Positions 14,935 to 57,590 of a DNA stretch of 64,000 nt are shown piece by piece. How positions within the stretch are numbered: the first letter of the stretch is position 1; the number at the start of each line of letters is the position of its first letter. Made by a program: the position numbers and the translations under genes. Source of the DNA: Candidatus Omnitrophota bacterium (GTDB lineage Bacteria; Omnitrophota; Gorgyraeia; Duberdicusellales; 4484-171); contig JBAWWL010000005.1 in NCBI GenBank assembly GCA_037146775.1, positions 102,241 through 166,240 on the forward strand. Reading direction: 5' to 3'. The notes beneath the pieces were generated by a model, which saw only the letters and a list, made by a program, of their open reading frames with translations, made no database searches and was not told the DNA's origin.

Positions 14935-15030
14935 ATACTAAACCCTACCCCAAAAATCCTAAACTCTAAACAAACTCAAAACCAAAATTATCCAAACTCG
15001 AACCATTAGAGTTCAGTGTTTTTAGTGTCG
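14935..15030. repeat. Heptamer-built palindromic repeat family, copy I (partial)
   Basis: 'cctaaactctaaacaaactcaaaaccaaaa...gagttcagtgtttttagtg' shares CTAAAC/TTTAG motifs with the copies at 23640 and 57428. Confidence 0.4.
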
Positions 15031-15035
15031 AGATT

Positions 15036-15947
15036 ATGAAAACATACGACTTAATAATTCTTGGTGCCGGCCCGGCTGGCATAACTGCTGCAGTCTATGC
15101 AGCCAGAAAAAAACTCGATTTTTTAGTTATTACCCAAGACGTCGGTGGACAAACCGTTTGGAGCGGTGATATAGAAAATTATACCGGTTATCAATTCATC
15201 AGCGGCCCGGATCTTGCTTTAAAATTTCAAGAACACATGAATGCTTTTTCCATGTCGGTACATATGCCGGAAGAAGTTCAGTATCTCGCGAAAGCCGGCC
15301 GATTAGTAGAGGTGCGGACCGATAAAGGAAGCTATCTTTCTAAGGCGGCAATTATTGCGACCGGAAAACATCCACGTTCTCTCAGTGTTCCCGGAGAAAA
15401 AGAATTTAGAAATCGCGGCGTGACGTATTGCGCTACCTGTGACGGCCCTTTGTTCAAAGACAAAACCGTAGCCGTGGTTGGAGGAGGCAACTCCGCACTT
15501 GATGCGGCGCTGCAGATGATAAAGATCTCGCCAAAAGTTCATGTCATTAATACCGCTGCCCGTCTGACTGCGGACCCTGTTATGACAGAGAAGCTGCAAA
15601 GGGCAACGAATGCCGAAATATGGAATAATGCCAAAGTAACAAAGATCAGCGGTGATACCTTCGTAGGGAGTTGTGAAGTAGAAAAAGATGGTGTATCATT
15701 TTCTCTGGCGGTGTCGGGGATTTTGATAGAAATTGGCTTAATTCCTAATTCTGATTTTACTAAGGCAGTGAAACGCAACGATGTGGGGGAAATTATTGTC
15801 GATAACCATAATAGCACCGACATCGAAGGTATTTTTTCCGCGGGAGACGTAACAGACGTTTTTGAGAAACAAATTATCGTTGCCTGTGGTGAAGGCGCAA
15901 AAGCCTGCCTTGCGGCATTTCATTATCTATCAACTCATGATTTTTAA
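15036..15947 (+). CDS. trxB: Thioredoxin-disulfide reductase-like flavoprotein
   Basis: 'DLIILGAGPAGITAA' FAD-binding motif, redox-active 'CATCDG', and a second GGGNSA NAD(P)-binding motif. Confidence 0.8.
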   Translation: MKTYDLIILGAGPAGITAAVYAARKKLDFLVITQDVGGQTVWSGDIENYTGYQFISGPDLALKFQEHMNAFSMSVHMPEEVQYLAKAGRLVEVRTDKGSYLSKAAIIATGKHPRSLSVPGEKEFRNRGVTYCATCDGPLFKDKTVAVVGGGNSALDAALQMIKISPKVHVINTAARLTADPVMTEKLQRATNAEIWNNAKVTKISGDTFVGSCEVEKDGVSFSLAVSGILIEIGLIPNSDFTKAVKRNDVGEIIVDNHNSTDIEGIFSAGDVTDVFEKQIIVACGEGAKACLAAFHYLSTHDF

Positions 15948-15985
15948 ATGTTTCTTGCTTCCAAGTATCGAGAGGATTTTTTAAC

Positions 15986-16465
15986 ATGATCATATTATCT
16001 CCTACGCTAATTAATTTTTTCGAAAAACAAACATTCGTAATTGTTTCTACTATTGATAGTTCAGGGAGCATTAATTGTGCGGCAAAAGGAATTGTTATGG
16101 CCCAGAAGCAAGGCAAGATCTACCTGATAGACCTTTACAAAACGAACACCTTTCACAATTTACAGGAAAATCACACCATTAGCGTTACTGCCGTAGATGA
16201 ACATCTGTTTATGGGGTACACATTAAAGGGCCGGGCACGTATGGTGGCACGTGATAAAATAGGCGCACCGCTGATAAAAAAATGGGAAGCAAGAGTTGTC
16301 CATCGCATTTCCAAGCGGCTCATTAAAAACGTCAAAGATAATAGAGATTCTCGGCACCATCCTGAAGTAAAGTTTCCTTATCCTCAGTATCTTATTGAAA
16401 TGTCAGTTGAAGAGGTGGTAGATTTGACACCCGCCCACCTTAAACAAGATTTTTCTCGTTCATGA
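15986..16465 (+). CDS. Pyridoxamine 5'-phosphate oxidase-like FMN-binding split-barrel protein
   Basis: 159 aa. The 'FVIVSTIDSSGSINCAAKG...' N-terminal pattern is typical of PNPOx-like general stress proteins. Weak call. Confidence 0.45.
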   Translation: MIILSPTLINFFEKQTFVIVSTIDSSGSINCAAKGIVMAQKQGKIYLIDLYKTNTFHNLQENHTISVTAVDEHLFMGYTLKGRARMVARDKIGAPLIKKWEARVVHRISKRLIKNVKDNRDSRHHPEVKFPYPQYLIEMSVEEVVDLTPAHLKQDFSRS

Positions 16466-16544
16466 AATTTCTATAACTTTCGGTAATTTTTTTAAATTTC
16501 TTCTTGATTTTTGTTCGAATACATTATATTTTATAGAGGTAATC

Positions 16545-18314
16545 ATGATGACGCCAATAGAAAAATGGGTAGAAGAAGTTGCCGGATTGACTGAACCAAA
16601 AGAAATTTACTGGTGCGACGGTTCGGAAAAGGAAGCGCAACGTCTTATTGAAAAAGGGATACGAGAAGAACGTATCAACGGTAAGCCTGTATTCCATGAG
16701 TTGAACCAAAAAAGCTGGCCGAACGCATACCTGCATCGCAGCCACCCCAATGATGTCGCACGTACGGAAAATTTGACTTTTGTCTGCCATCCAGATAAAG
16801 AAACCAATGGTCCGAATAATAATTGGATGGCGCCCCAGGACGCTAAACAAAGACTTACGCAATTGACCAAAGGGTGCATGAGGGGAAGAACTATGTATGT
16901 GCTTCCTTTTGTGATGGGACATCCGGACTCGCCAATTGCTAAATTTTGCGTACAGGTAACCGACAATTCATATGTTGCAATCAACATGCGGATCATGACG
17001 CGCATGGGTAAGGATGTCCTGGATCGGATCGGTAACAGCGATAATTTTATTAAAGGGTTACATTCCGTAGGAGATCTTGATCCTGAACGCCGCCTGATCG
17101 TACATTTTCCCGAGGAACGCTTAGTTTGGAGTGTCGGTTCAGGCTACGGCGGTAACGCGCTATTGGGTAAAAAATGCATATCATTGCGCCTTGCTTCCTG
17201 GATTGGATATCAGGAAGGTTGGCTTGCCGAACACATGATTGTTGTCGGCGTCGAAGACCCTCAAGGAAATATTGATTATTTAGTTGCGGCATTACCGAGT
17301 GCCTGCGGCAAAACAAATTTAGCCATGTTACGTTCGGCGCTGCCCGGCTATAAAATATGGACTCTCGGAGACGATATCGCCTGGCTACGTATTGGCGAAG
17401 ACGGCCGGTTGTGGGCCACAAATCCTGAGATGGGATTTTTCGGCGTTGCTCCGGGCACCTCTTTAAAGACTAACCCGTTAATGATTGAAACATTAAAGCA
17501 AGGCACATTTTATCCTACGCTTTTTACGAATACTGCTTTGGATATCGACACCAATGAGCCGTGGTGGGAAGATTTGAGTGCACAGCCGCAGCATATGCTG
17601 GATTGGCAAGGAAATACATTTTTGCCGCAGTCAGGCGCAAAGGCCGCACATGCGAATTCGCGCTTTACCGTATCTACGCTGCAATGCCCGACCCTGTCGA
17701 AAGAATTTAATAATCCAAAGGGTGTGCCGATTTCCGGAATTATCTTAGGTGGCAGGCGCTCTGGCCTTATCCCGCTGGTGTATGAGAGTTTTGATTGGCA
17801 GCATGGGGTATTTTCTGGAGCAATGATGGGCTCTGAAACTACTGCTGCGGCGCAGCATGCGGTAGGAGTTTTACGCCGCGACCCCATGGCCATGCTTCCT
17901 TTTTGTGGTTATAATATGGGGACTTACTTTGGTCACTGGCTCGCTATCGGTAAGAAGCTGAAACATCCGCCCAAAATATTTTTTGTTAACTGGTTCAGAA
18001 AAGATGACAACGGCCGATTTCTTTGGCCCGGTTTTGGAGAAAATATCAGAGTGCTTCAGTGGATAATCGCTCGTACGAAGAATAAAGCCCAGGCAAAGGA
18101 AACGCATATAGGGCTTGTTCCCGATATGGGAAGTTTTGATCTTTCCTCGCTCTCTATTCCCAAAGCACATATAGAAAAGCTCTTTTCGATTGATGAGAAA
18201 AAGTGGGATGCCGAATTAAAAGAGGCTGAAGAGTTTTTCAAGAAATTTGGTACATGTATACCCGAAGCTTTGCACCAGGAATTTGATATTTTGGAAAAAA
18301 AGTTAAAAACGTAA
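16545..18314 (+). CDS. pckG: Phosphoenolpyruvate carboxykinase (GTP)
   Basis: 589 aa with a family-typical N-terminus ('YWCDGSEKEAQRL', 'HPNDVARTE'), the PEPCK-specific loop 'LPSACGKTNLAML', and a C-terminal nucleotide-binding region. Confidence 0.9.
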   Translation: MMTPIEKWVEEVAGLTEPKEIYWCDGSEKEAQRLIEKGIREERINGKPVFHELNQKSWPNAYLHRSHPNDVARTENLTFVCHPDKETNGPNNNWMAPQDAKQRLTQLTKGCMRGRTMYVLPFVMGHPDSPIAKFCVQVTDNSYVAINMRIMTRMGKDVLDRIGNSDNFIKGLHSVGDLDPERRLIVHFPEERLVWSVGSGYGGNALLGKKCISLRLASWIGYQEGWLAEHMIVVGVEDPQGNIDYLVAALPSACGKTNLAMLRSALPGYKIWTLGDDIAWLRIGEDGRLWATNPEMGFFGVAPGTSLKTNPLMIETLKQGTFYPTLFTNTALDIDTNEPWWEDLSAQPQHMLDWQGNTFLPQSGAKAAHANSRFTVSTLQCPTLSKEFNNPKGVPISGIILGGRRSGLIPLVYESFDWQHGVFSGAMMGSETTAAAQHAVGVLRRDPMAMLPFCGYNMGTYFGHWLAIGKKLKHPPKIFFVNWFRKDDNGRFLWPGFGENIRVLQWIIARTKNKAQAKETHIGLVPDMGSFDLSSLSIPKAHIEKLFSIDEKKWDAELKEAEEFFKKFGTCIPEALHQEFDILEKKLKT

Positions 18315-18315
18315 C

Positions 18316-19203
18316 ATGAGTCAGATCATTCTTTCCACACAATTTTCCGACCTTAAATTATTTCGCCGCGGCAAAGTTCGTGACGTGTATGAAGCAGAGG
18401 ACAGCCTCCTTATTGTCTCTACCGACCGTATTTCCGCTTTTGACGTGGTGCTTCCTAATGGAATTCCCGAAAAAGGAAAAGTGTTGAATCAACTTTCGCT
18501 TTTCTGGTTCTATTTCACTCAAGGGATCATTCCCAACCATGTTATTACTTCAGATGTCAGCCAATATCCGGCTTCGCTTCAAAAGTATGCAGATGCATTA
18601 GACGGCCGCTCGATGCTGGTGAAAAAAACCAAACCGATCGCGTTTGAGTGTGTAGTTCGAGGGTATTTGGCAGGTTCAGCGTATAAGGAATATCAGGAAA
18701 AAGGAAGCGTGTGCGGCATGCAGTTACCTTCGGGTTTACGAGATGGAGATAAACTTCCTCAAACCATGTTTACGCCGGCAACAAAAGAAGAGCACGGCCA
18801 CGACATCAATGTTGATGAGGCATTTATGGAAAAAAAACTTGGTGTGGAATTGAGTCGCACCGTGAGGGAGGCAAGTATCCGTATCTATGAAAAAGCAGCA
18901 GCCTATGCTCTTAAGAGAGGTATTATTATTGCTGATACTAAGTTTGAATTCGGCTCTGACAAGAACCAAATTATCTTAATCGATGAAGTATTGACGCCTG
19001 ATTCTTCCCGTTTCTGGCCGAAAGAAACGTATCAGCCTGGCCGTTCCCAGGCCAGTTACGATAAGCAGTTTGTCCGCGATTATCTGGAAAGTATAAGTTG
19101 GGATAAAAATCCTCCTGCACCAACTCTGCCCGAAGAAGTTGTCATAAAAACCGCAGACAAGTATAAAGAAGCTTTACGGTCTTTGGCTGATATCAGTCTG
19201 TAA
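18316..19203 (+). CDS. purC: Phosphoribosylaminoimidazole-succinocarboxamide synthase (SAICAR synthetase), long form
   Basis: 'FRRGKVRDVYEAEDSLLIVSTDRISAFDVVLPNGIPEKGKVLNQLS' is a canonical SAICAR synthetase N-terminus. Confidence 0.9.
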   Translation: MSQIILSTQFSDLKLFRRGKVRDVYEAEDSLLIVSTDRISAFDVVLPNGIPEKGKVLNQLSLFWFYFTQGIIPNHVITSDVSQYPASLQKYADALDGRSMLVKKTKPIAFECVVRGYLAGSAYKEYQEKGSVCGMQLPSGLRDGDKLPQTMFTPATKEEHGHDINVDEAFMEKKLGVELSRTVREASIRIYEKAAAYALKRGIIIADTKFEFGSDKNQIILIDEVLTPDSSRFWPKETYQPGRSQASYDKQFVRDYLESISWDKNPPAPTLPEEVVIKTADKYKEALRSLADISL

Positions 19204-19213
19204 ACAATTTGTT

Positions 19214-20521
19214 ATGCATTCCAAACAGGGCGAACAGTTTAGTCGTGTAGCCGGTAATCTTTCCGGCATGAAGTTCATTTTTCGTTCTCTACGCTACAGG
19301 AACTTCCGCCTTTTTTTTGCCGGCCAACTTGTCTCTCTGATCGGTACGTGGATGCAGACAATTGCGATGAGCTGGTTTGTGTATCAGTTTACCAACTCTA
19401 CGCTTACCCTGGGTATTGTGGCCTTTTGTAGCCAGATACCTTCATTTTTTATTGCCCCCTTCGCCGGCGTTTTTATCGATAGGCTGAATAAACATAAAAT
19501 TCTTGTTATTACCCAGACGCTTTCCATGCTGCAGGCTTTTGCTTTGGCTTTTCTTGTTATCAGCAAGATCTACCTTGTGTGGCCGATCATAGTGTTGAGT
19601 TTATTTCTCGGATTCGTTAACGCCTTTGACATTCCCGGCCGGCAAGCGTTTATCGTCGAAATGGTTGGGAAAAAAGAAGATTTGGGTAATGCCATTGCGC
19701 TCAATTCGCTTATGTTCAATATCGCGCGTTTGCTAGGGCCGTCGATAGCGGGAATTTTGATTACCGTTGTCGGAGAGGGAACATGTTTCCTTATTAACGG
19801 TGTAAGTTTTCTTGCGGTTATCGCCGCGCTTTTAGCGATGAAGAATCTGCATCATAAACGCGAGATAAAACGATCGCATGTATTGGAAGATTTAAAAGAA
19901 GGCTTTCGTTACGCATTTCGTACCTTGCCTATCAGGTTTATCTTGATGCTTCTGGGTATGATCAGCCTGGTGGGAATGTCTTACGCGATTTTAATGCCTG
20001 TCTTCGCAAGGCATATATTAGGCGGAGGCCCGCAAACATTTGGATTTTTGATGGCCTCTATCGGAATAGGCGCTTGCGCCGGGACCGTATATCTTGCTTC
20101 GCGCAAAAATATTGCCGGATTTATAAAAATTATTGCTTACGCCACAGGTATTTTTGGATTGGGGCTGGTATTATTTTCTTTGTCGCGTACGTTGTGGCTG
20201 TCTCTGTTGATTTTATTCGTTACGGGGTTTGCAATGATGGTGCAAATGGCTTCATGTAATACCATTCTGCAGACCATAGTGGAAGACGACAAGCGCGGAA
20301 GAGTAATGAGTTTTTATACCATGTCTTTTATGGGTATGGCTCCTTTCGGCAGCCTTATCGCCGGGATTATGGCCACACATATAGGCGCACCCTTGACCGT
20401 AACTTGTGGCGGATTGGCTTGTTTTGTCGGCGCGCTTATTTTTGCTAAAAGTATCCCCTTATTTAAAAAGCACATTCATTCTCTTTATAAGAAAACAGGT
20501 ATTTTTTCACCCGTAGCATAA
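19214..20521 (+). CDS. MFS transporter (EntS-like family)
   Basis: 12-TM pattern. The N-terminal 'FRSLRYRNFRLFFAGQLVSLIGTWMQ' is typical of the enterobactin-exporter-like MFS subfamily. Confidence 0.75.
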   Translation: MHSKQGEQFSRVAGNLSGMKFIFRSLRYRNFRLFFAGQLVSLIGTWMQTIAMSWFVYQFTNSTLTLGIVAFCSQIPSFFIAPFAGVFIDRLNKHKILVITQTLSMLQAFALAFLVISKIYLVWPIIVLSLFLGFVNAFDIPGRQAFIVEMVGKKEDLGNAIALNSLMFNIARLLGPSIAGILITVVGEGTCFLINGVSFLAVIAALLAMKNLHHKREIKRSHVLEDLKEGFRYAFRTLPIRFILMLLGMISLVGMSYAILMPVFARHILGGGPQTFGFLMASIGIGACAGTVYLASRKNIAGFIKIIAYATGIFGLGLVLFSLSRTLWLSLLILFVTGFAMMVQMASCNTILQTIVEDDKRGRVMSFYTMSFMGMAPFGSLIAGIMATHIGAPLTVTCGGLACFVGALIFAKSIPLFKKHIHSLYKKTGIFSPVA

Positions 20522-20568
20522 ACCCGGCTTTTTGAGTTAACGGCCGCAAAGTACTGTTATTCTTGTTT

Positions 20569-20703
20569 GCCGGATGAAGGTGAAAAAGTATCAATGTATT
20601 CGGCTTCGGAGGAATTTCTCCGTAATCATTAGATTGATGGAGAATCCCTCCCATGATCTGCCGGAGGCAGCGCGGGCGGTAAAATAAGGTGTTTCATTTG
20701 CGG
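20569..20703 (+). ncRNA. Conserved structured intergenic element (copy 2 of 2)
   Basis: Alignable to 7624-7790. It shares the 5' 'GCCGGATGAAGG', the GGAG/CTCC hairpin, 'GATGGAGAA.CCC' and the 3' 'TAAAATAAGGTG.TTCATT' that pairs with the 5' end. It lies about 46 nt upstream of the ZIP transporter gene. Confidence 0.4.
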
Positions 20704-20748
20704 CAAAGCGAAATTAAGATATAATAAGCCTGTTAGGGGATTATTCAT

Positions 20749-21498: not shown

Positions 21499-21504
21499 CC
21501 GCAC

Positions 21505-22665: not shown

Positions 22666-22832
22666 TTTGCTTCAGAATTAACCGAAAAAAATACCAATAC
22701 ATTTTTTGGGTTAAAATCATAGAAATGGATTGACAATTAATAAATACATAGTATCTTATGAAAGATAATGTTAAAATATTATTTAATCCAAATGTATTTT
22801 TCCGTTTTTAACCAGCGCAGCAGGTAAGAAAA

Positions 22833-23621: not shown

Positions 23622-23639
23622 TATGTTTATAAATCCGAA

Positions 23640-23762
23640 ACACGAAATCCTAAACACTAAACAAATCAAAAATTCAAAATCCAAAACCAAAAAAGTTTTA
23701 AGTTTGTGATTTCAAGTTTTGTATTTATTTAGGATTTAGAGTTTAGTGTTTAGAGTTTGAGC
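23640..23762. repeat. Heptamer-built palindromic repeat family, copy II
   Basis: Left arm 'aaatcctaaacactaaacaaatcaaaa...' and right arm '...atttaggatttagagtttagtgtttagagtttgag' form an imperfect long inverted repeat. It ends 5 nt before the etfA start. Confidence 0.45.
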
Positions 23763-23766
23763 AAAT

Positions 23767-24966
23767 ATGAGTGACGCAATAAAAATAATAGTTGATAAGT
23801 GCGTGGGCTGCGGTTTGTGTCTAAAGGTTTGCCCTTTTTCTGCTATCACATTGGCCCACAAAAAAGCGGTTATTGATGTAGCAAAATGCAATTTGTGCGG
23901 TGCCTGCAAAGATTCATGTAAATTCTCCGCGATCACCATCTTTAAGCCACAGATCGTAAAAGCCGATTTTTCTTCCTATAAAGATGTCTGGGTATTCGTC
24001 GAGCGGGAACGGGACAAAATCGCCGGCGTATCGTTTGAGTTGCTCGGTAAGGCGCGCGAGCTCGCAAAGGATTTACACTGCAAGGTTGTGGCAGTTTTGT
24101 TGGGCAAGAATGTTAAAGAAAAAGCTCAGATGCTTATACAGAAAGGTGCGGATAAGGTAATTGTGGTAGAGCGTAACGAGCTGGATAATTTCATTTCCGA
24201 AAATTACGCCGGTGTCATTAGCCATCTCGTTGGAAAATATAAACCGGAAATATTTTTGGCCGGAGCGACTACCTGTGGCCGTTCTCTGGTTTCTCGTATC
24301 GCAGTAACTATCTATGCCGGGCTTACTGCCGATTGTACGGGTTTGGATATTGATAAGGAAAAAAGATTGCTTATTCAGACTCGCCCGGCGTTCGGCGGAA
24401 ACATTATGGCTCAAATTATTACTCCCAATCACCGGCCGCAGATGGCAACGGTGCGCCATAAGGTAATGAAAGAAGCTGAAGCCGATACTAAGCGGAAGGG
24501 CGAAGTGATAGAAGAAGTGGTGGATGGCGCAGTCATTAATGCGCGGGTTACGTTCATCGATTTTATTCAGGAAGAAACCGGAAAAGTAAACTTGGCTGAT
24601 GCCGATATTATTGTTTCGGGCGGCAGAGGCTTGGCTGACGCAAAAAATTTCCCCATACTTCAGGAATTAGCGCAAACTCTCGGTGCTGCCGTGGGCGCTT
24701 CGCGTTCGGCTGTGGACAGCGGTTGGATCAACTATTCTCATCAGGTGGGACAAACCGGCAGAACAGTCGCACCAAAAATATATATTGCGTGCGGTATATC
24801 GGGGCAAATCCAACATTTAGTGGGTATGCAGTCGTCAAAAATCATTATAGCTATCAACAAAGATCCCGACGCACCTATTTTTAAAGTAGCGAATTACGGG
24901 ATTGTGGGGGACTTGTTTAAGGTTATCCCGCTGTTAACAAAAAGTCTGAAAGCAGTAAGGAAATAG
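23767..24966 (+). CDS. etfA: Electron transfer flavoprotein alpha subunit with N-terminal 2x[4Fe-4S] ferredoxin domain
   Basis: The N-terminus carries 'CVGCGLCLKVCP' and 'CNLCGACKDSCK' ferredoxin motifs. The remainder is EtfA/FixB-like, with a C-terminal FAD-binding 'SGQIQHLVGM'. Confidence 0.9.
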   Translation: MSDAIKIIVDKCVGCGLCLKVCPFSAITLAHKKAVIDVAKCNLCGACKDSCKFSAITIFKPQIVKADFSSYKDVWVFVERERDKIAGVSFELLGKARELAKDLHCKVVAVLLGKNVKEKAQMLIQKGADKVIVVERNELDNFISENYAGVISHLVGKYKPEIFLAGATTCGRSLVSRIAVTIYAGLTADCTGLDIDKEKRLLIQTRPAFGGNIMAQIITPNHRPQMATVRHKVMKEAEADTKRKGEVIEEVVDGAVINARVTFIDFIQEETGKVNLADADIIVSGGRGLADAKNFPILQELAQTLGAAVGASRSAVDSGWINYSHQVGQTGRTVAPKIYIACGISGQIQHLVGMQSSKIIIAINKDPDAPIFKVANYGIVGDLFKVIPLLTKSLKAVRK

Positions 24967-25000
24967 CACACCAGTAACATTCAAGGCATACGGTATACCC

Positions 25001-33570: not shown

Positions 33571-33573
33571 CGG

Positions 33574-36704: not shown

Positions 36705-38147
36705 ATGTATTATGGCCAATTGAAAAATTATAATTGTAAAGACACTATTGCTGCGATTGCGACATTTCCTGCCCAGTCAGCCATAGGTATCATTAAGATT
36801 TCCGGCAAACGTGCGATCTCTATTGTGTCAGGGGTTTTTCTATCCCGGAAAAAGAAGGATCTCAAAAAAGTAAAAACATATACATTGCATTACGGCTGGA
36901 TCGTAGAGAAATTAAAAGTAAAAAATCAAAAATCAAAAAAGAACGTAATGGTCGACGAAGTTTTGGTAAGCGTAATGAAAGGGCCTCGTTCATATACCAA
37001 AGAAGATGTTGTCGAGATATCCTGTCATGGCGGGCCGGCGGTATTACAGAAAATTTTAGAAATTATAATCCAACAAGGAGCGCGGCCGGCCTCGCCGGGG
37101 GAATTTACCTACCGAGCTTTTGTAAACGGCAGAATTGACCTCTTACAGGCGGAGGCGATAGCCAGTATCGTAGAAGCAAAAACTTCACATTCGCTTGAGC
37201 CGGCGATGCAGCAGCTAAGAGGCGAGGCTTCCGTCCGTTTGCAGGAGATAAAAGAAACGATAAAAGAACTTTTTAGCCACACTCAAGCACTGCTTGATTT
37301 TCCCGAAGATAATATCACGCTGAGCGTTTCTGCTGTTACCAAGAGGCTTGTCGTGGTCAAGAAAAAGCTGGATGCCATGCTCCAGGGCGGCACACGGGCC
37401 AGGATACTTAAGGAGGGTTTACGTTGTGTTATCTGCGGTAAAACTAACGTAGGCAAGTCGACTCTTTTTAATCGCCTCTTGAACCAGGAACGCGTTATTG
37501 TCAGCCGATTACCCGGTACTACCCGGGATGTTGTCGAAGAAACTATTTCCATAAGGGGCGTTCCTTTGCGTATATATGATACTGCGGGGATCCTTGAGCC
37601 GAAAGATTTGGTTGAAAAAAAAGCTGTTGAAAAATCATCACACGCTTTCCAGGAAGCGGATATGGTGCTTTTGATGCTTGATGGTTCGCGCAAACTGCAA
37701 AAAGCCGATAGATTTCTTTTAGAAAAGATTACGCAGGCGGTAAAAGCAGATACGGGCAAAAAAGTCATCGTTATTATTAATAAAACCGATTTGCGGCAGA
37801 AATTGGTGTGTGAGAATTTAACGGGAGCTTGTGTCCGTCTGGTGCGGGTGAGTGCCTTGAGGGATAAAGGAATTAAGAGTTTAGAGAAGGCAATAGTTGA
37901 CCTTGTCTATAAAGAGGGATTAAAGAGGGACGATATTATTTTTTTAAATCAGCTGCAGCGCAGAACCCTGGAAGAAGCAAATCTCAGCATAGCCGAAGCC
38001 CTTGAATATCTACGAAAAAGTTATACGATAGATTTTGTGCAGGCATCGTTGCAACAAGCCATTGATGCCATAGGCAGGATTAGCGGCGCGATACCCAACG
38101 AGGAAATTCTCAAAGAAATATTCAGTAGATTCTGTATCGGCAAATGA
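36705..38147 (+). CDS. mnmE: tRNA modification GTPase MnmE (TrmE)
   Basis: G-domain 'ICGKTNVGKSTLFN...DTAG', N-terminal THF-binding domain, and the C-terminal 'CIGK' motif. Confidence 0.9.
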   Translation: MYYGQLKNYNCKDTIAAIATFPAQSAIGIIKISGKRAISIVSGVFLSRKKKDLKKVKTYTLHYGWIVEKLKVKNQKSKKNVMVDEVLVSVMKGPRSYTKEDVVEISCHGGPAVLQKILEIIIQQGARPASPGEFTYRAFVNGRIDLLQAEAIASIVEAKTSHSLEPAMQQLRGEASVRLQEIKETIKELFSHTQALLDFPEDNITLSVSAVTKRLVVVKKKLDAMLQGGTRARILKEGLRCVICGKTNVGKSTLFNRLLNQERVIVSRLPGTTRDVVEETISIRGVPLRIYDTAGILEPKDLVEKKAVEKSSHAFQEADMVLLMLDGSRKLQKADRFLLEKITQAVKADTGKKVIVIINKTDLRQKLVCENLTGACVRLVRVSALRDKGIKSLEKAIVDLVYKEGLKRDDIIFLNQLQRRTLEEANLSIAEALEYLRKSYTIDFVQASLQQAIDAIGRISGAIPNEEILKEIFSRFCIGK

Positions 38148-38204: not shown

Positions 38205-38316
38205 GATTACACAGATTGTTTTAGAGAGAATCCCGCACATTTTGTTTAGAAACTCTTAATCTGTGTAATCGATTTTAAATCAGTGTAATCAGGTATAATC
38301 TTAATAAATTATACCT
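38205..38316. promoter_or_regulatory. folE leader: 13-bp perfect inverted repeat of the AATCTGTGTAATC motif plus -10-like palindrome
   Basis: 'gattacacagatt' (38205-38217) and 'aatctgtgtaatc' (38258-38270) are exact reverse complements. 'gtgtaatcag' occurs again at 38284-38293. 'ggTATAATcttaataaattatacc' holds a TATAAT inside an 8-bp inverted repeat. Confidence 0.4.
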
Positions 38317-38339: not shown

Positions 38340-38897
38340 ATGGATAAGAAGAAAATTCAAAAGGGTGTAACGTTAATATTGGAAGCGGTCGGCGCGGATT
38401 TGGGAAAAAAAGATATTGGGACCACTCCGCAGCGTGTCGCTGAAATGTACGAAGAAATACTGGCCGGGCAATTTAGCAGCGCGGAAGATGAGTTGGAAGT
38501 AGTGTTGGAACAGAAGCATGACGAAATAATCCTGCTTAAAGATATACCGCTTTATTCGCTGTGTGAGCACCATCTTCTCCCTTTTATGGGTAAAGCGCAT
38601 GTTGCTTATATTCCTGATGAGCGTATAACCGGTTTAAGTAAAATTGCCAGGGTAGTGGACGTGCTTTCCAAGCGTTTACAGGTTCAGGAGCGGCTTACCA
38701 CCGAAATTGCCGACGTGATCATGAAAAAACTTAAGCCCAAAGGGGTTATGGTAGTTATAGAAGCGGAACATTTGTGTATGTCTATGCGGGGAGTGAAAAA
38801 ACCAGGAACGCTGACTACTACTTCTGTGGTCAGGGGGGTATTTCGAACCAATCAAAAAACTCGCCAGGAAACTTTAAGTTTAATCAGCACGCGCTGA
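38340..38897 (+). CDS. folE: GTP cyclohydrolase I
   Basis: '[11 protein letters not shown]...[19 protein letters not shown]...' shows the FolE catalytic motifs. Confidence 0.9.
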
Positions 38898-49652: not shown

Positions 49653-49670
49653 CTTGTTGTTTGTCTTATT

Positions 49671-50744: not shown

Positions 50745-50821
50745 ACCCCGTCTTTCTGCGCATTCTCCTTAACCATTTCTAATATTGTGAGTTTAAGTTA
50801 TAATAAGGCTGGTAGCTTTAC

Positions 50822-52273: not shown

Positions 52274-52606
52274 GTCTGCCTTGTCCTCTCCAGGGGTACT
52301 GCCTCTTGGAAGTATTTTTCACTGCTTTCCGCGCAGCAATTATTTTAGATTTTACCAGAAATACCGTAAAATTTACCCAAAAAAGAGTATCCATTCCGTA
52401 TTCCAAAAACCCCCACGATTTCCCGATCTTACGAGAGATTAATTTTTTGATAGAAGAATAGACGATTATATTCACTATAAACGATTTCAAAAATATCCTT
52501 TCTCATTCTTAGACTATCTTTCTGCGTATTGGGAAAATAGCCAAATTCGGCAATACCAGATTGAATTTTTTAAAAAGTAAACGCTTCCAAAAATTGCTTA
52601 TCCTAC

Positions 52607-52643
52607 CTTGATTTACGCGTAAAAAATATGGTATACTTAGTTG
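52607..52643 (+). promoter_or_regulatory. Putative sigma70 promoter for the pilin array
   Basis: 'cTTGATTtacgcgtaaaaaatatggTATACTtag' is a -35-like element, an approximately 18-nt spacer and a -10 TATACT. Confidence 0.4.
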
Positions 52644-52788
52644 TGAATTAGGAGGCGACGAAAAGGCAATTCCCGGTGTAAGCCGGGATGCGCAAAGCCA
52701 CGGGTCCCGAACGTTTGCAGGTTGTAGGTAATAAGTATTAATTTAAGTGTCTATACTTATCACCTACATATTAATGAAGGAAAGGGAT

Positions 52789-52840
52789 AGCCGAGCTGCC
52801 GAACGTCTCGAAAGAGCGGCAGTTCGGCTATTTTTATTTT
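52789..52840 (+). promoter_or_regulatory. Strong hairpin + U-run in the pilin leader (attenuator/terminator-like), directly before the first pilin RBS
   Basis: 'agccgagctgccgaacgtctcgaaagagcggcagttcggct' is a 13-bp stem, followed by 'atttttatttt' and then 'aggagg'. Confidence 0.4.
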
Positions 52841-52854
52841 AGGAGGCCAAAAAG

Positions 52855-53160
52855 ATGAAAACAAAAAAGATATCGGCGCAGTCAGTCATTGAATATATTT
52901 GCGTAACCATGGTGTTTGCTGCCGTGGGTATAGGAACTTTTGTTGCGGCAAACCATGCGGCAGTAGCGAATCTGCGCGGTCATGGCACCAACTATCAGTC
53001 TCAGACTAACCTTATGGGTCAAACCACCTATGCCGGTATCGACAAAGAACAATACAACTGGCCTTCTACTTGGGATCAGGCATATCCGGGAACAAGCAGC
53101 AAGCAGGTTCGCCAATTTGTGGATAATCCGGAACAAACTTCAGGACAAGGAGGAGAGTAA
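52855..53160 (+). CDS. Flp/Fap-family type IVb prepilin-like protein 1
   Basis: 'MKTKKISA|QSVIEYICVTMVFAAVGIG' has a class III signal-peptide motif (A|QSxxEY) plus a hydrophobic helix. Confidence 0.7.
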   Translation: MKTKKISAQSVIEYICVTMVFAAVGIGTFVAANHAAVANLRGHGTNYQSQTNLMGQTTYAGIDKEQYNWPSTWDQAYPGTSSKQVRQFVDNPEQTSGQGGE

Positions 53161-53339
53161 TGTTAGCCCATATCAGAAAATCAAAGGCGCAGAGTATTCT
53201 TGAATACGTGTCGTTAACGCTTATTGTATGGGGAGCGTTGTCGGCAATGACATTTTATATTCAGCGGGCGATGGAAGTAAGGACCCGGCATCTTAACCAG
53301 GAATTAAACGAGAATGCCAGAGGAAATGGGATGATTTAA
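53160..53339 (+). CDS. Flp-like prepilin 2 (59 aa, below ORF-track cutoff)
   Basis: ATG overlaps the previous stop (taATG). 'MLAHIRKSKA|QSILEYVSLTLIVWGAL'. Confidence 0.6.
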   Translation: MLAHIRKSKAQSILEYVSLTLIVWGALSAMTFYIQRAMEVRTRHLNQELNENARGNGMI

Positions 53340-53353
53340 AAGGAGCGAGAAAC

Positions 53354-53800
53354 ATGAAGCAACATAACCATAAAATCATGGCTCGAGGGCAAAGCATAAC
53401 AGAGTATTTGATCGTGTTAGCAGCTATTATCGGCGCTATTGTGGCCAGCACTATCGGCATACGTTATGGGGTAAACAGAGGTATGAAGACCGTTAATGAA
53501 AAATTTGAAAAAGGCATTGCTACCAGCAGCGTTCCGGGAAAGCAAAAGGCATATTTACAAACGGAAGAGTCTTACGATGATTCAAGACAGCATAAAACTG
53601 ACCCGGCATGGGAAAACACCGATCAGCCAGGAGGCCCTCAGTATACTGGTGGCTATGAATATGAGGAGTGGGTGCGTAATAATCCCGACAGCGCTTACAA
53701 TGCGCCGGAAGATGGGAAAACATTATATGATACCGGCGTTAAACCGTATCCGGCAAAAAATTATTGGGTAGGCAATGTCAGGGGGCAGAAAGGTAAGTAG
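53354..53800 (+). CDS. Flp-like prepilin 3 with extended C-terminal domain
   Basis: 'MARG|QSITEYLIVLAAIIGAIVA'. 148 aa. Confidence 0.7.
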   Translation: MKQHNHKIMARGQSITEYLIVLAAIIGAIVASTIGIRYGVNRGMKTVNEKFEKGIATSSVPGKQKAYLQTEESYDDSRQHKTDPAWENTDQPGGPQYTGGYEYEEWVRNNPDSAYNAPEDGKTLYDTGVKPYPAKNYWVGNVRGQKGK

Positions 53801-53808
53801 GCGTTTTT

Positions 53809-53973
53809 ATGTATAGAAAAACAAAAGCACAGAGTTTTATCGATTATGCAGCGTTAATTGCGATTATTGTGGTATCGCTGCTAGCCATGTCCGGCTATGT
53901 TATGCGGTCAATTAACGCGAGGGTTGCCCACATGTGGGCGGATTTATATCATCCACAAAACGGAGTAAGGTAG
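53809..53973 (+). CDS. Flp-like prepilin 4 (54 aa, below ORF-track cutoff)
   Basis: 'MYRKTKA|QSFIDYAALIAIIVVSLLAM', identified by manual translation. Confidence 0.6.
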   Translation: MYRKTKAQSFIDYAALIAIIVVSLLAMSGYVMRSINARVAHMWADLYHPQNGVR

Positions 53974-53989
53974 GAGGAGGTGAGTTGTA

Positions 53990-54172
53990 ATGGTTAAGAA
54001 GGCGCAGAGTATTCTCGAGTACGTCATCGTTCTTTCAGCTATCGTAGCAGCAGTTATCGCAATGGCAAGAGGTCCGGTAACGCAGGCGGTAAACAAAATG
54101 TTTACTGATTCATCTAACGTGATCCAGGAGAAGTCGGGCATTTTTTATCAGCAGTCAGCCGGTGGTAAGTAA
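53990..54172 (+). CDS. Flp-like prepilin 5
   Basis: 'MVKKA|QSILEYVIVLSAIVAAVIA'. Confidence 0.7.
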   Translation: MVKKAQSILEYVIVLSAIVAAVIAMARGPVTQAVNKMFTDSSNVIQEKSGIFYQQSAGGK

Positions 54173-54201
54173 GGGGTATTATTCTTGAAGGAGGTGTGAA
54201 A

Positions 54202-54516
54202 ATGTTAACCAGACGTAAAAAGGGACAATCAGTAGCGGAATACGCGATCTTAATTTCTCTTTGCGTTGCCGCATTTATGGGGATACAGAACGAAGTACGC
54301 AGAGCTATTCAGGCTCGCGTTCACGACGCGGCAGTAGAACTAACGCAAGGCGGCACATGGCAATATGAGCCTTCTGCAGGCGTTAAGACGACCACGAACC
54401 AGAAGTCAGAGCGTATTAAAGATGAAAACTGGATTGATAAGGGTGACGTGGATTCAGTGTATCAGAAAGTTGCAGATACCAACAGCGCTGATTACAAATC
54501 CGACGAAACGAAATAA
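54202..54516 (+). CDS. Flp-like prepilin 6
   Basis: 'MLTRRKKG|QSVAEYAILISLCVAAF'. RBS 'gaaggagg' is 7 nt upstream of ATG 54202. Confidence 0.7.
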   Translation: MLTRRKKGQSVAEYAILISLCVAAFMGIQNEVRRAIQARVHDAAVELTQGGTWQYEPSAGVKTTTNQKSERIKDENWIDKGDVDSVYQKVADTNSADYKSDETK

Positions 54517-54567
54517 GGACGCTTATTATTTTATTTTATTACGCACATAACTTAAGGAGGTGCGAAC

Positions 54568-54921
54568 GTGTTAACCAGATGTAGAAAAGCACAAAGTACT
54601 CTTGAATATGCCCTTCTCATCGGAGTGGTGGTAGGAGTGCTGTTGACCATGCAGAACTACTTAAAAAGAAGTATGCAGGGTAAATTACAGGCTACCGCTG
54701 ATGAAATGGGCGAACACTATTCTCCTGGCGATACGAAACGTCACGAACGTCTCTATTCGTCAATCGACAGCGTGACTGAAACGTCGATTTATGGAAAAGC
54801 ATCCGATACTTCCGGTGAAGTCGGAAGAACCCGCACCGTTATTAAGGGCGGAAAACAAGAGCAGGCGGCCACCAGAGAAAACCGCGGTCTTGACAGAGAA
54901 AGATGGGAGCACAAGAAATAA
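54568..54921 (+). CDS. Flp-like prepilin 7 (GTG start)
   Basis: 'MLTRCRKA|QSTLEYALLIGVVVGVLL'. RBS 'aaggagg' precedes it. Confidence 0.65.
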   Translation: MLTRCRKAQSTLEYALLIGVVVGVLLTMQNYLKRSMQGKLQATADEMGEHYSPGDTKRHERLYSSIDSVTETSIYGKASDTSGEVGRTRTVIKGGKQEQAATRENRGLDRERWEHKK

Positions 54922-55001
54922 ATTCCGCCGGGCTTACGCATCGTTGGTGTCAAGTATGGGCAGGGGTGTAAAGTAGTTGTAGTAAACTGAAAGGATGAAT
55001 A

Positions 55002-55328
55002 ATGTTAATGAAACGTAAAGCAGTGACTGTATTGCAGTACAGTTTCCTTATCGCAGTAACGGTGGGAGTATTGCTTACCATGCAAAATTACATAAAACGC
55101 AGTATGCAAGGGCAATTGCAGACTTATAGCGATTCCATGGGTGAGCAATACTCCCGGGGACTGACGAATATACACGACCATTATTCATCCACAGCGAAAA
55201 CCACAGAATGGAAGCTACCCACATTCAATATACGCGGTAATGGCGGCGACTGTACGCATACTCAGGGAACATATACGGCCACCTCGGAACGAGAGCTTTT
55301 ACCTCTTGATGCGGAGCGCTGGAATTAA
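55002..55328 (+). CDS. Flp-like prepilin 8 (variant motif)
   Basis: 'MLMKRKA|VTVLQYSFLIAVTVGVLL', with Q in place of the E+5 residue. Its paralogy to prepilin 7 is evident ('LTMQNYIKRSMQG'). Confidence 0.6.
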   Translation: MLMKRKAVTVLQYSFLIAVTVGVLLTMQNYIKRSMQGQLQTYSDSMGEQYSRGLTNIHDHYSSTAKTTEWKLPTFNIRGNGGDCTHTQGTYTATSERELLPLDAERWN

Positions 55329-55357
55329 CAAACCGTTTTAAGAGCAGCTATAAAAAC

Positions 55358-56035
55358 ATGAATGTAACCAATAAAAGAACAGATTGTTACCGATACGGTT
55401 ATAAAAAGGCACAGTCTTTTCTGATGTACGCCTGTTTAATTGGCATAGTTATCGGAGTACTGTTGACCATGCAGCGTTATATCGGCAGAAGCATGCAAGG
55501 GCTTCTGAAGCAGAATCTAGATAATATGGGCGGTGAAAAAGTGTCCGGTAAACAATATAGTCCTGGACGCTGGTTTGGTTCAAAGAGTTTAGTGCGGGTT
55601 AATACCAGTGGTTTTGACTACGAAGGCAGACATGGTTTTGGTGTGAATATTGCGAACAGCCAGCGTAGCGAATCCGTCCGTATCACCGATACAATTAACC
55701 CCGGAGACCTTCCCCCGGTAAATTTAGATACTAAAAGCGTGCTTGACGGAGAGGATAAGCGGTTGATCCAAGATACGTATGGTTCTGATTTTGATCCGGG
55801 TATAAATAAAGTGGAAAATAATGTGAATGGTGGCGTCCGTGACTGGGAGTATGTGTCGGAGAAAGCGCCGGATAGTGTTGGCGCCAATGCCGACGAGAAT
55901 TTCGATCAGAGAACAAAAAACACCTTTGGCGAACATATTCCTGAGTCCTCTACCGCGGGCGCGGTGGGCGAAAGCAAGGGGCCTAACTACGAAGGAGAAG
56001 CCGGAACCAATTTACCAGAAAATAAGGCACAATGA
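55358..56035 (+). CDS. Flp-like prepilin 9 with large C-terminal domain (225 aa)
   Basis: 'YKKA|QSFLMYACLIGIVIGVLLTMQRYIGRSMQG'. Confidence 0.6.
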   Translation: MNVTNKRTDCYRYGYKKAQSFLMYACLIGIVIGVLLTMQRYIGRSMQGLLKQNLDNMGGEKVSGKQYSPGRWFGSKSLVRVNTSGFDYEGRHGFGVNIANSQRSESVRITDTINPGDLPPVNLDTKSVLDGEDKRLIQDTYGSDFDPGINKVENNVNGGVRDWEYVSEKAPDSVGANADENFDQRTKNTFGEHIPESSTAGAVGESKGPNYEGEAGTNLPENKAQ

Positions 56036-56427
56036 GAAAAGCAAACGCTATTATTGAATATACATTTATTATTGCTATAGTAATTAGTGCTCTTGCGGGC
56101 ATGAATGCGTATTTAAAACGCGTAGTGCAGGCGCACATTAAAAGAGAAACCGATGAGCACTTATATATGCCTTCATCTTTCTTATGGCAAAGTTCAGTTA
56201 CTTTTCGCAGGCAAGAAACCGAGCATGACCGCCGTGAATATGCTCACGGCGATACAGTGGTCAATGTAACCAGTCGCAGTCCGTCGGTGAGTTTGCATGC
56301 GCCTTCTCCGCCCGGGGTTCCGGTGGCGGGTATACATGCGCAGGATGCAGCGTCAGCGCCTCCTGGCCAGAGTAACCCAAGTAATCCGACGAGCGATGAG
56401 CAAACCGAAGTGCCAGCGGCAGATTAA
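56032..56427 (+). CDS. Flp-like prepilin 10
   Basis: 'MRKA|NAIIEYTFIIAIVISALAG'. Start overlaps the previous stop (ATGA). Confidence 0.65.
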   Translation: MRKANAIIEYTFIIAIVISALAGMNAYLKRVVQAHIKRETDEHLYMPSSFLWQSSVTFRRQETEHDRREYAHGDTVVNVTSRSPSVSLHAPSPPGVPVAGIHAQDAASAPPGQSNPSNPTSDEQTEVPAAD

Positions 56428-57032
56428 TGTATTTTATGAAGACCATGAAAAAATTATTTAGCAAAAAAGCCCAGGCAATGGTAGAGTTGGCAATCCTGGG
56501 GCCCCTGCTTTTAATGGCGGTTGGCCTGGTGGTTACCTATGTAGCCAAGATGAATAATGACCAGTGGGTATTGATGGAGGCATTTCGCCGGGCACTCGCC
56601 CATTCTCATGACGAAAACAAAAATGTTGGCTACGGCACCTATGATGACCGCAGAATGGCTTCAGTGCAGGAGCCGATTCTCGGCCAAAAAACTCCTTCAA
56701 GCGGCTCTGCTTGTGTGGTGTGGTCAATTCCCTCGGTAGACGGAGATGGCCAGGACCCTCAAAGTACCACTATTGTAAAAGTAAACGGTGGCATCTGGGC
56801 GATTCCTGGTTATAATGAATATGATCTTGGGCCAGGCGCCGGCGGCGGCGTAGAACCCCTTTATTTAACTGCCAAAGGTTCGAATCTTACTGTTAAAACC
56901 GAAGACGGGGTGACTACCTCAACCCGTTCTGGCGGAGTGGGCGAGTTCATGTTATATAAAATCAATAAAAAGAATCATCCGCAGGGCCGTGGTAGCGGAG
57001 ATTCACGTACCTTTACCGGCCATGCTGACTAG
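56427..57032 (+). CDS. TadE-like pseudopilin
   Basis: 'KKAQAMVELAILGPLLLMAVGLVV' resembles the TadE N-terminal motif (G/A-x-VEFALV-P). Alternative starts at 56436 and 56445. Confidence 0.6.
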   Translation: MYFMKTMKKLFSKKAQAMVELAILGPLLLMAVGLVVTYVAKMNNDQWVLMEAFRRALAHSHDENKNVGYGTYDDRRMASVQEPILGQKTPSSGSACVVWSIPSVDGDGQDPQSTTIVKVNGGIWAIPGYNEYDLGPGAGGGVEPLYLTAKGSNLTVKTEDGVTTSTRSGGVGEFMLYKINKKNHPQGRGSGDSRTFTGHAD

Positions 57033-57081
57033 CGGGTAATATAAACTGTTGTTGTTTTATGGAGACTTAAGGAGGAGACGG

Positions 57082-57342
57082 ATGCGAACGAGAAAAGCCC
57101 AAAGCATATTAGAATCAGTGCTTGCCTATGTTGCCGGAACCGCGCTTTTAGGTGCGGCTATGGGTATTTTTGCCTGGGGCATAGCACATATTCCGATTAG
57201 ACAGGTTACTTATGAGGCAACGCGCATTATTGCCGGAACTCCGCGTTGTCGTATGGTGGATAAAGACGGCGCAAAAAAAACAGGTATCGGCAGTATGCCG
57301 GTTTGGCCGACTTATTTTGTCGGCGGCGGAGTTACGCCATAA
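57082..57342 (+). CDS. Flp-like prepilin 11 (variant)
   Basis: 'MRTRKA|QSILESVLAYVAGTALLGAAMGIFA'. RBS 'aaggagga' precedes ATG 57082. Confidence 0.55.
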   Translation: MRTRKAQSILESVLAYVAGTALLGAAMGIFAWGIAHIPIRQVTYEATRIIAGTPRCRMVDKDGAKKTGIGSMPVWPTYFVGGGVTP

Positions 57343-57427
57343 TAAGTGCTATGATAATGTTAAAAGTTTTATGAAAGACTATGGATAAAAGTATTGAATT
57401 TAAAGGGATATTGTCACCGGAGGAGGG

Positions 57428-57590
57428 AAACTCTAAATCCTAAACCCTAAATAAACTCAAAATGAGCCAAACCCAAAACCCACAACGAGATGAATTAAGA
57501 CAAAAGCCTTGTATTTTTTAATGTTTTGAGTTTGGGGTTTGATATTTTGGATTTGTTTAGAGTTTAGAGTTTCGGGTTTAGAGTTTAAAA
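57428..57590. repeat. Heptamer-built palindromic repeat family, copy III (longest)
   Basis: Left arm 'aaaCTCTAAATCCTAAACCCTAAAtaaactcaaaa...'. Right arm '...ttttgagtttggggtttgat...gTTTAGAGTTTAGAGTTTcgggTTTAGAGttt'. Arms of about 60 nt each around an approximately 35-nt loop. Confidence 0.5.

Follow-up and report, generated by a model that had tools for sequence, protein, structure and literature searches.

What are the long imperfect palindromes of 7-nt units that stand in front of unrelated genes in a Candidatus Omnitrophota genome, and where did they come from? The question is raised by a 64,000-nt stretch of contig JBAWWL010000005.1 (assembly GCA_037146775.1, positions 102,241 to 166,240 of the forward strand; hereafter the window), in which three imperfect intergenic palindromes are built from CTAAAYN/RRTTTAG heptamers (14937-15035, 23631-23758 and 57428-57587; copies I, II and III). 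A reading of the letters alone (the original prediction) had reported three palindromic heptamer loci just 5' of the trxB, etfA and tadG starts, had offered protein-binding arrays, terminators or insulators, or decayed miniature inverted-repeat transposable elements (MITEs) as their nature, and had proposed fold prediction and a motif search beyond the window. Loci and gene positions are as it described them. We consider it probable that all three are decayed copies, devoid of their open reading frame (ORF), of a selfish palindromic heptamer cassette that occurs across phyla, occupies operon junctions and is related to the intervening sequences of 23S rRNA. What is new here is an intervening-sequence-type hairpin cassette with a four-helix-bundle gene that lives in operon junctions, and of which the window holds three gene-less remnants.

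The window loci and their full-length relatives

Full-length relatives provide the structural basis for this reading. In six collected loci (L028, L065, L084, L029, L086 and L096, the last three found via their right arm) the arms enclose a 119-aa ORF of family PF05635. The intact cassette consists of three parts: a left array, (CTAAAYN)n-AAAYAAAYNCAAAA, that contains the ATG and the opening codons in its inner portion; the 119-aa gene; and an inverted array right after the stop. In L028, L065 and L084 the left arm directly enters the ORF (...CTAAATAAACTCAAA ATG TCA GAA ACT CAA AAC CCA AAA CC...) and the right arm starts at the ORF stop (...AAA TAA TGTTTTGAGTTTTG...). The product matches PF05635 with E 9e-14 and 5e-12 (family name '23S rRNA-intervening sequence protein'), TIGR02436 with E 6e-20 ('four helix bundle protein') and PDB 2rld, an entry of five chains, with E 3.5e-14; a PADLOC search gave no match for it. 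Its subfamily holds at least 8000 clusters; the best 120 are all 74-100% identical, with labels that include Omnitrophota, Deltaproteobacteria, Thermodesulfobacteriota and one Thermoproteota archaeon (P0073).

The window itself has no intact four-helix-bundle gene by tblastn, and its copies are ORF-less like 96 of the 158 arm matches elsewhere. Copy III keeps the two ends of the gene. Its first seven codons, ATG AGC CAA ACC CAA AAC CCA, encode MSQTQNP, compared with MSETQNP in the intact proteins; a frameshifted stub ending in TAA follows, and the stop is succeeded by TAATGTTTTGAGTTT (TGTTTTGAGTTT), the same 15 nt that follow the stop in full-length copies. Since both the start codons and the post-stop 15-mer are kept, copy III is an internal-deletion derivative of the cassette. 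The features of the three loci are as follows.

14937-15035, + strand: copy I, the most decayed, identified by its arms, its fold and nhmmer (E 9e-11), with a long A/C-rich arm at 14937-15003 and a short degenerate T/G-rich arm at 15006-15035
23631-23693, + strand: copy II left arm, (AAAYNCK)n, AAACAAATCAAAA, (YNCAAAA)n; nhmmer E 3e-22 over 23631-23751
23696-23758, + strand: copy II right arm, terminating in TTTAGGATTTAGAGTTTAGTGTTTAGAGTTT
57355-57427, + strand: flank upstream of copy III shared with other loci, aligned as ...TATGAAAGA.TA.GG..AAA.G.ATTGA.TTTA.AGGGATATT...GGAGG.AA
57428-57486, + strand: copy III left arm, AAACTCT AAATCCT AAACCCT AAATAAA CTCAAAATG..., leading into the ORF remnant; nhmmer E 3e-24 / 1e-21
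57462-57521, + strand: four-helix-bundle ORF remnant in copy III, MSQTQNPQRDELRQKPCIF*, compared with L028, L065 and L084
57523-57587, + strand: copy III right arm, GTTTTGAGTTTGGGGTTTG...TTTGTTTAGAGTTTAGAGTTTCGGGTTTAGAGTTT
57600-57616, + strand: downstream motif ATAGTTTTGACAATACC, 13-25 nt past the right arm, from alignment and fuzzy search

With up to one mismatch, CTAAAYNCTAAA matches the window 14 times, compared with 5.3 +/- 2.4 in shuffled sequence (none of 100 shuffles reaches 14), and 12 of the 14 matches fall within the three loci. A family hidden Markov model (HMM; nhmmer) of 26 copies, namely window copy II and 25 from other genomes, finds copies III (E 3e-24), II (E 3e-22) and I (E 9e-11) and no fourth copy in the window, where the next-best match has E 0.44. 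By Tandem Repeats Finder, each of the three loci has a period of 7. The best-pairing parts of the arms are 31 nt long and 74% complementary in copy I (14939-14969 / 15006-15036), 63 nt and 71% in copy II (23631-23693 / 23696-23758), and 36 nt and 78% in copy III (57428-57463 / 57544-57579), which has inner arms besides. A scan of the whole window for inverted repeats of at least 28 nt with an exact seed of 9 gave none, because the arms have no exact 9-mers in common. Predicted RNA folds are far stabler than shuffles at all three loci, with z of -2.1 (+ strand) and -3.2 (- strand) for copy I, -3.7 and -5.2 for copy II, and -5.4 and -5.5 for copy III.

All three loci are flanked by co-directional + strand genes. 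Copy I extends right up to the trxB-like ATG at 15036, and its sequence recurs unchanged in a second sample (L001); the original description of its surroundings is corrected by a 72-aa zinc-ribbon ORF upstream (14680-14898, stop at 14898). Copy II begins 9 nt past the etfB stop and finishes 8 nt before the Fer4-EtfA ATG at 23767, and copy III lies between a 97-aa ORF and a Tad/TadG-like gene, its end 52 nt before the ATG at 57640.

Beyond the window, aligned arms have a common layout of outer CTAAAYN units, the core AAAYAAAYNCAAAA and inner YNCAAAA units. The motif search found the 23-nt core CTAAAYNCTAAAYAAAYNCAAAA in at least 120 stretches of a species-representative genome collection, with the same two-arm layout and in more than 12 phyla, as well as in 24 viral contigs; the pattern carries ~39 bits, and ~2 chance matches are expected in 596 Gb. 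The listed matches include Patescibacteria (many classes), Omnitrophota, Planctomycetota, Chloroflexota (Dehalococcoidia), Deltaproteobacteria/Desulfobacterota and Nitrospirota, and further Bacteroidota, Calditrichia, WOR-3, Aminicenantia, Kryptoniota and others. The repeat flavour follows lineage: Omnitrophota and Planctomycetota mostly have AAACTCT/AAACCCT, as in the window, and Patescibacteria and others mostly AAATCCT/AAATTCT. A partner arm lies no more than 150 nt away for 96 of 158 arm matches, at 150-330 nt for 3, at 330-600 nt for 6 and beyond 600 nt for 1, while 3 meet a contig edge and ~49 have no partner; partners were counted by heptamer-unit pattern, as strict local alignment (mismatch -2, score >=50) had missed most visible arms.

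Of the 5 well-preserved window arms, 4 contain the exact 23-nt core, and the alignments show that the window arms are homologous to the cassette arms, beyond mere compositional likeness. The ~75 nt upstream of copy III are conserved in the full-length cassettes L146 (2345-2430) and L084 (3300-3395) despite different host genes, and this flank probably belongs to the transferred unit. Past the right arm, ATAGTTTTGACAATACC recurs in L146 (2945-2961), L084 (3870-3886), L094 and L050, with a Shine-Dalgarno sequence and the host ATG behind it. It may be that the transferred unit extends beyond the palindrome, or that the palindrome lies inside another element.

Several minor observations concern the cassette and its arms. 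Many database versions of the 119-aa protein are annotated with 134-151 aa (P0021, P0032, P0034, P0052 and others), probably because gene callers start within or upstream of the left heptamer arm. The full-length cassette L156 (2440-2935) lies exactly between smpB and the tmRNA gene, the 5' end of which, GGGGTGAAAGGTTTCGAC, is ~20 nt past the right arm. Cassettes with inverted heptamer arms also occur on archaea-binned contigs, such as L255 (JGI 3300033149, protein labelled Hodarchaeales); these, like the label of P0073, reflect either cross-domain spread or misbinning. GC-rich mini-palindromes of two types, CCTGCC...GGCAGG and CATTCCCGCGAAAGCGGGAATC-like, are nested in the arms or loops of several heptamer hairpins (L211 2670-2700, L091, L089, L012 and L107), and the loops of L011 and L019 hold inserts of the form GTCATTCC(C/G)GCG.AAGC.GGAATCC; such nested palindromes would be a second layer of tiny inserted elements. 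In L114 (~380-560, - strand) one of the family's left arms leads into long ATCCAGC, AACCAGT and ACTGCCT arrays and then an assembly gap, a series that could represent nested flavours or a repeat-caused assembly breakpoint.

Operon junctions and the etfB|etfA site

Where gene calls are available, the four-helix-bundle gene is co-oriented with both neighbours (9 of 9 loci) and, in all but one of the nine, lies 9-47 nt past the upstream stop. The junctions occupied include carA|carB, serC|serA, ispG|HIT, LemA|M48 protease, RND|RND, two-component genes and smpB|tmRNA. As intact copies are co-oriented in operon junctions, they are expressible only by host read-through, a dependence shown by their orientation and spacing. 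ORF-less copies with an ORF on each side (n = 62) lie between co-directional genes in 48 cases, convergent genes in 9 and divergent genes in 5; their median start is 12 nt past the upstream stop (sometimes overlapping it) and their median end 28 nt before the next start.

Other members of the protein family are similarly framed. A narrow HMM of 120 close four-helix-bundle proteins found just one further subfamily in the collected loci; a second protein search, started from the L239 fragment of a different subfamily, and seven contig look-ups extended the sample. Eight other subfamilies were sampled in this way, each flanked by inverted heptamer arrays of its own.

L246: TTATGAG / CTTATAA
L248: TTATAAG / CTCATAA
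L251: GAATTNT / TTCATAA
L255: GAATTAC / GTAATTC
L256: TTNTTAA / TTCAAAA
L258: AATKATG / YTCATAA
L254: A-rich and T-rich arrays of its own
L239: (TAACTAA)x5 after the four-helix-bundle stop

In these other flavours the start codon lies within the unit TTATGAA and the stop codon within its complement TTCATAA. L253 has exactly one more TTCATAA unit after the four-helix-bundle stop than the near-identical L251 from another sample (~1566-1590), and the left arm of L146 (2436-2490) holds (CCCTAAA)x6; the L251/L253 difference amounts to slippage of copy number inside a population, and from such differences in unit number it follows that the arrays also slip. The (CCCTAAA)x6 array is a plant-type telomere repeat and could pass for eukaryotic contamination in metagenomes. 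Period-7 arrays are frequent throughout, with 471 in 1.48 Mb of collected loci compared with 5 after shuffling; the EtfA loci, which were not picked for repeats, contain ~25 of them in many flavours in 0.38 Mb.

The history of one junction can be followed in the relatives of copy II. We fetched 80 metagenomic relatives of the window EtfA and measured the etfB-etfA gap in 76. The gap is -4 (an overlapping ATGA) in 21 of the 76 and -1 in 5, and it is no more than 14 nt in most; ~20 of the 76 carry inserts of 38-153 nt, nearly all of them hairpins, and many have a 7-nt period of different sequence. Four relatives whose EtfA proteins are mutually 92-96% identical present four different states: no insert in L193 (CACCTTATATGAGCG), a hairpin of (AAAATCA)n/(TGATTTT)n in L167 and one of (ACGTAAC)n in L168, and in L169 a member of the window's family whose inner arm and loop are almost those of copy II. 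The closest EtfA relative of the window (L166, 91%) carries a CAGTGAT hairpin, L170 one of TAAGGTT/AACCTTA, and L192 one resembling Coxiella GACAGAT units. Comparison of these sequences indicates that the insert was gained at an ancestrally overlapping etfB|etfA junction and that different heptamer hairpins turn over rapidly at this site. When L169 is compared with the empty L193 site, ATATGA is seen on both sides of the insert. The doubling fits a target-site duplication and also selection for keeping both stop and start; it is ambiguous in that neither reading is needed to the exclusion of the other, since both genes could be kept intact only with the ATGA overlap doubled. No consistent target-site duplication was seen at the other copies.

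At the same junction L244 (2460-2498) carries a solo right-arm-like array, TTTAGGA TTTAGAA TTTAGAA, 8 nt upstream of etfA and without a left arm. It looks like the TAACTGA-type repeats discussed below and may hint at how such repeats arise.

Origin and mechanism

[quoted passage not shown] The cassettes are like them in forming a hairpin with terminal inverted repeats, with a PF05635 ORF in the loop and heptamers directly upstream of the ORF start; both include copies whose ORF decays or is gone, both are suspected of being selfish, and neither has an explained origin or mobility. The general plan of a stem of terminal inverted repeats around an optional S23p/PF05635 ORF is thus present here. 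The location differs, as our cassettes lie between protein-coding genes or beside tmRNA and not inside 23S rRNA: the window has no Rfam match to rRNA, its loci have protein-coding flanks, and none is placed inside helix 25 or helix 45. Three of five short rRNA motifs (up to 2 mismatches) had no match, the 15-nt motif of the 23S peptidyl-transferase centre had 7 isolated loci and the 16S 515 motif 2. The stems differ as well, with 28 bp of near-perfect pairing in the rRNA inserts and heptamer arrays of 50-65 nt here, for which cutting by RNase III would be an analogy.

Cyanobacterial short tandemly repeated repetitive (STRR) sequences are intergenic heptamer direct repeats. The TAACTGA heptamer repeats of Beggiatoaceae, Cyanobacteria and Bacteroidetes lie upstream of starts and were described with neither a mechanism nor a link to the four-helix-bundle family (MacGregor 2015, PMC4679880). 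With both, the arrays share tandem 7-nt units that contain stop codons a few nt upstream of starts, and a patchy distribution suggesting horizontal spread without a known mechanism. All three window loci have tandem 7-nt units in intergenic DNA close to starts, and the (TAACTAA)x5 right after the four-helix-bundle gene of L239 is one base from TAACTGA. The difference is that those repeats are described as direct, with almost no inverted partner, and that ours form inverted pairs with or without an ORF.

Other comparisons are more partial. MITEs, repetitive extragenic palindromic (REP) sequences and bacterial interspersed mosaic elements are likewise short palindromes without an ORF that are scattered over intergenic DNA; orthologous sites may hold or lack them, and they are tolerated inside operons, where mRNA stability can be affected; the parent here has no transposase or REP-associated tyrosine transposase, the arms are heptamer arrays, and the copies are diverged and spread over many phyla. 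Integron cassettes also combine a small promoterless gene with an imperfect palindrome (attC), are expressed by read-through and keep structure or consensus over exact sequence, but here there is no integrase, attI or cassette array, the elements are scattered over many operon junctions, and the palindrome is split around the ORF. The cassette protein has the fold and family of Avd of diversity-generating retroelements, a pentameric four-helix bundle that binds nucleic acid (PMC10053308); in contrast to such retroelements, no cassette examined (9 with gene calls) has a reverse transcriptase, template or variable repeat beside it, and the neighbours are housekeeping genes.

A mechanism can be proposed along these lines. 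The copies would have arrived by insertion, the duplicated ATATGA at one site hinting at a staggered cut. Co-transcribed with their neighbours, they would fold into an imperfect hairpin of 48-60 bp, which RNase III probably cuts, by analogy with the stems of 23S intervening sequences, splitting the operon mRNA. As 7 = 1 (mod 3), three successive units would show TAA/TAG (ATGA in other flavours) in all three frames; with stops in all frames, an insert at a gene junction would do no harm to the upstream ORF and could be tolerated in any reading frame. The right arm of copy II and the left arm of copy III do have stop codons in all three frames on both strands, and the right arm of copy III has them on the + strand only. 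Since it is heptamer sequence that is conserved and not pairing, the heptamers are probably read by a protein, for which the pentameric four-helix-bundle protein is the obvious, if speculative, candidate. The window copies are probably inert or mildly disruptive.

A broader proposal is that inverted heptamer arrays with a PF05635 gene make up a class of selfish operon-junction cassettes that spans phyla and had gone unrecognised, and that unites the 23S intervening sequences with an S23p ORF, the TAACTGA/STRR repeats and the ORF-less hairpins, with the 7-nt period as a frame-independent stop/start adaptor and with a pentameric protein that reads the heptamers and drives insertion, replacement or RNA processing. 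We put this forward tentatively, as somewhat less likely than not; it would explain four states at one junction among near-identical strains. In the full-text literature, subscription-only papers not covered, we found no published account of four-helix-bundle genes with heptamer arms outside rRNA.

How the arms are conserved bears on both proposals. In the alignment of the 26 copies the 48-bp stem has 79.7% standard pairs, which fall to 56-57% if the arms are slid by one column; the hairpin potential is real and register-specific, but it is a consequence of the one consensus that both arms keep. Two variable positions in each heptamer unit mismatch about half the time. Heptamer sequence, not pairing, is conserved, and this speaks for a protein that reads the sequence, or for what the sequence encodes, no less than for an RNA helix under selection. 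The original prediction was right that the arms are imperfect and differ between copies, a feature that is informative since the arms do not covary.

A number of results count against the cassette reading. Reshuffling the 3' letters among sequences leaves 81.2 +/- 0.5% paired (500 of 500 shuffles as high), the covariation score is 0.068 compared with a shuffled mean of 0.091, and RNAalifold retains no more than the 8 core pairs that are invariant, its covariation term being 0. By gapped alignment a copy's own partner arm falls at the 45th percentile when set among those of unrelated genomes; the ungapped anchored test, in which register shifts are possible, agrees with gapped alignment and pair counting in showing no complementarity peculiar to a copy. 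There is no covariation, and selection for an RNA stem is therefore unproven; nor is there an Rfam match at the three loci at gathering thresholds, so that neither mark of a structured cis-regulatory RNA was found. Look-ups of identical proteins returned one genomic context per protein and no sign of recent bursts. The co-directional share of the short copies (77%) is close to the genomic background, the decayed left arms of copies I and II lack a stop in one frame, and no mobility enzyme was identified among the examined cassettes; we know of no catalytic activity of the four-helix-bundle protein. At etfB|etfA the ATATGA doubling could reflect selection and not target-site duplication, and the several flavours could partly reflect in-situ turnover rather than separate insertions. 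Apart from these results, a functional strand deduced from G-U wobble (antisense fold stabler in 67 of 93 copies) was rejected as an ascertainment artefact, because the finding arm is consensus by construction and transitions therefore fall on the partner arm.

Were the arrays products of local replication slippage, they would be simple repeats of STRR/TAACTGA type that were not inserted as units, and the palindrome would be incidental. Variable unit number, with (CCCTAAA)x6 in L146 and one unit more in L253 than in L251, agrees with this, as do the many flavours, several of them at the same junction in close relatives, and the solo array in L244. We nevertheless hold slippage to be unlikely, since phyla keep a non-repetitive core, an inner arm and an ORF in common although the gene contexts are unrelated, loci with different host genes share flanks beyond the arrays, and the empty state is a 4-nt overlap with nothing to slip on. 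Classical MITEs, in the sense of elements derived by deletion from a DNA transposon and mobilised in trans by a transposase that reads the arms as terminal inverted repeats, would account for the inverted arms, for absence from the orthologous site in relatives, for a possible 4-6 bp duplication (ATATGA) and for the conservation of arm sequence over pairing, as expected of protein-binding ends. What makes them improbable is that every full-length copy found carries only the 119-aa four-helix-bundle ORF, with no transposase between the arms. The copies are diverged, with own arms no closer than arms from other genomes and without the many near-identical copies per genome of a MITE family; heptamer arrays of 50-65 nt are unlike known terminal inverted repeats, and other copies show no consistent duplication. 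The earlier suggestion of decayed MITEs is all the same the nearest of those offered: the loci are ORF-less, diverged and dispersed, and the copy II site is empty in close relatives, but the parent is a PF05635 hairpin cassette without a transposase.

The other two suggestions fare less well. UAG/CUA at a 7-nt period directly upstream of start codons would suit host cis-regulatory arrays that control trxB, etfA and the tad genes through a regulator, a nucleoid protein or HutP/TRAP-type reading of UAG at 7-nt spacing, and TAACTGA arrays upstream of starts were once proposed as translational regulator sites (PMC4679880). The neighbouring genes have no common function in the window or across more than 150 loci, however, the same sequence stands beside unrelated genes in more than 12 phyla, and the element is absent from orthologous junctions in relatives and has its own ORF; binding arrays of this kind are quite unlikely. 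Unrelated gene contexts and the element's own ORF also led us to drop HutP/TRAP-like UAG reading, CsrA sponges and telomere-like CCCTAAA as candidates. That the loci are intrinsic terminators or insulators between operons is very unlikely in spite of strong predicted hairpins and of the 9 of 62 copies between convergent genes. The stems are AT-rich, with a mismatch every 7 nt and without the GC clamp and U-tract of a terminator, and a scan of copy III, the sole locus scanned, gave no terminator-like or promoter-like site. Copy II, moreover, splits etfB and etfA, which overlap in relatives and whose co-expression is required, and intact cassettes, all co-oriented in operon junctions, depend on read-through.

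If the three loci are indeed remnants of a four-helix-bundle cassette, the consequences extend beyond this genome. TIGR02436 is among the commonest small proteins of unknown function in environmental genomes, and the ORF carried by some 23S rRNA intervening sequences has, to our knowledge, gone unexplained since the 1990s. A family that moves together with inverted heptamer arrays of its own, sits in operon junctions in the orientation of its neighbours and leaves hairpins without an ORF would give the rRNA inserts a natural context, namely that of cassettes which, as a special case, landed in rRNA. Such a family would also provide a candidate origin for heptamer repeats upstream of start codons and a testable idea for the 7-nt length of the repeat unit. 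Because the hairpins split translationally coupled pairs (etfBA, carAB, serCA) in uncultivated phyla, they are relevant to operon prediction, gene calling and metagenome assembly; for gene calling an effect is seen in the N-terminal extensions that give proteins of 134-150 aa.

Other features of the window

The 72-aa ORF upstream of copy I (14680-14898, + strand) has a CxxC...CxxC pattern and a Ser/Gly/Cys-rich tail, and the gene calls for the identical contig L001 do not include it; it looks like a member of the FmdB family.

A further period-7 array, AAATCAA x4.4 (36909-36939, + strand), lies inside mnmE (36705-38147) and encodes ...KVKNQKSKK.... The Pfam TrmE_N match in this gene covers 130 residues for 117 profile positions, which fits an insertion of ~13 aa at the array, and the (AAAATCA)n flavour is common to the mnmE array and the etfB|etfA hairpin of L167. 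The array may be a one-armed heptamer array that was absorbed into the gene.

An imperfect period-9 repeat, TAATCAGTG x3.8 (38257-38292, + strand), occupies intergenic DNA before an ORF at 38340; no inverted partner was seen for it, and it resembles the CAGTGAT units of the L166 hairpin. Finally, a c-di-GMP-I riboswitch aptamer (RF01051; 40.5 bits, compared with a gathering score of 35) is present at 52655-52803 on the + strand, upstream of a pilus/tad-like gene region, and is unrelated to the heptamer elements.

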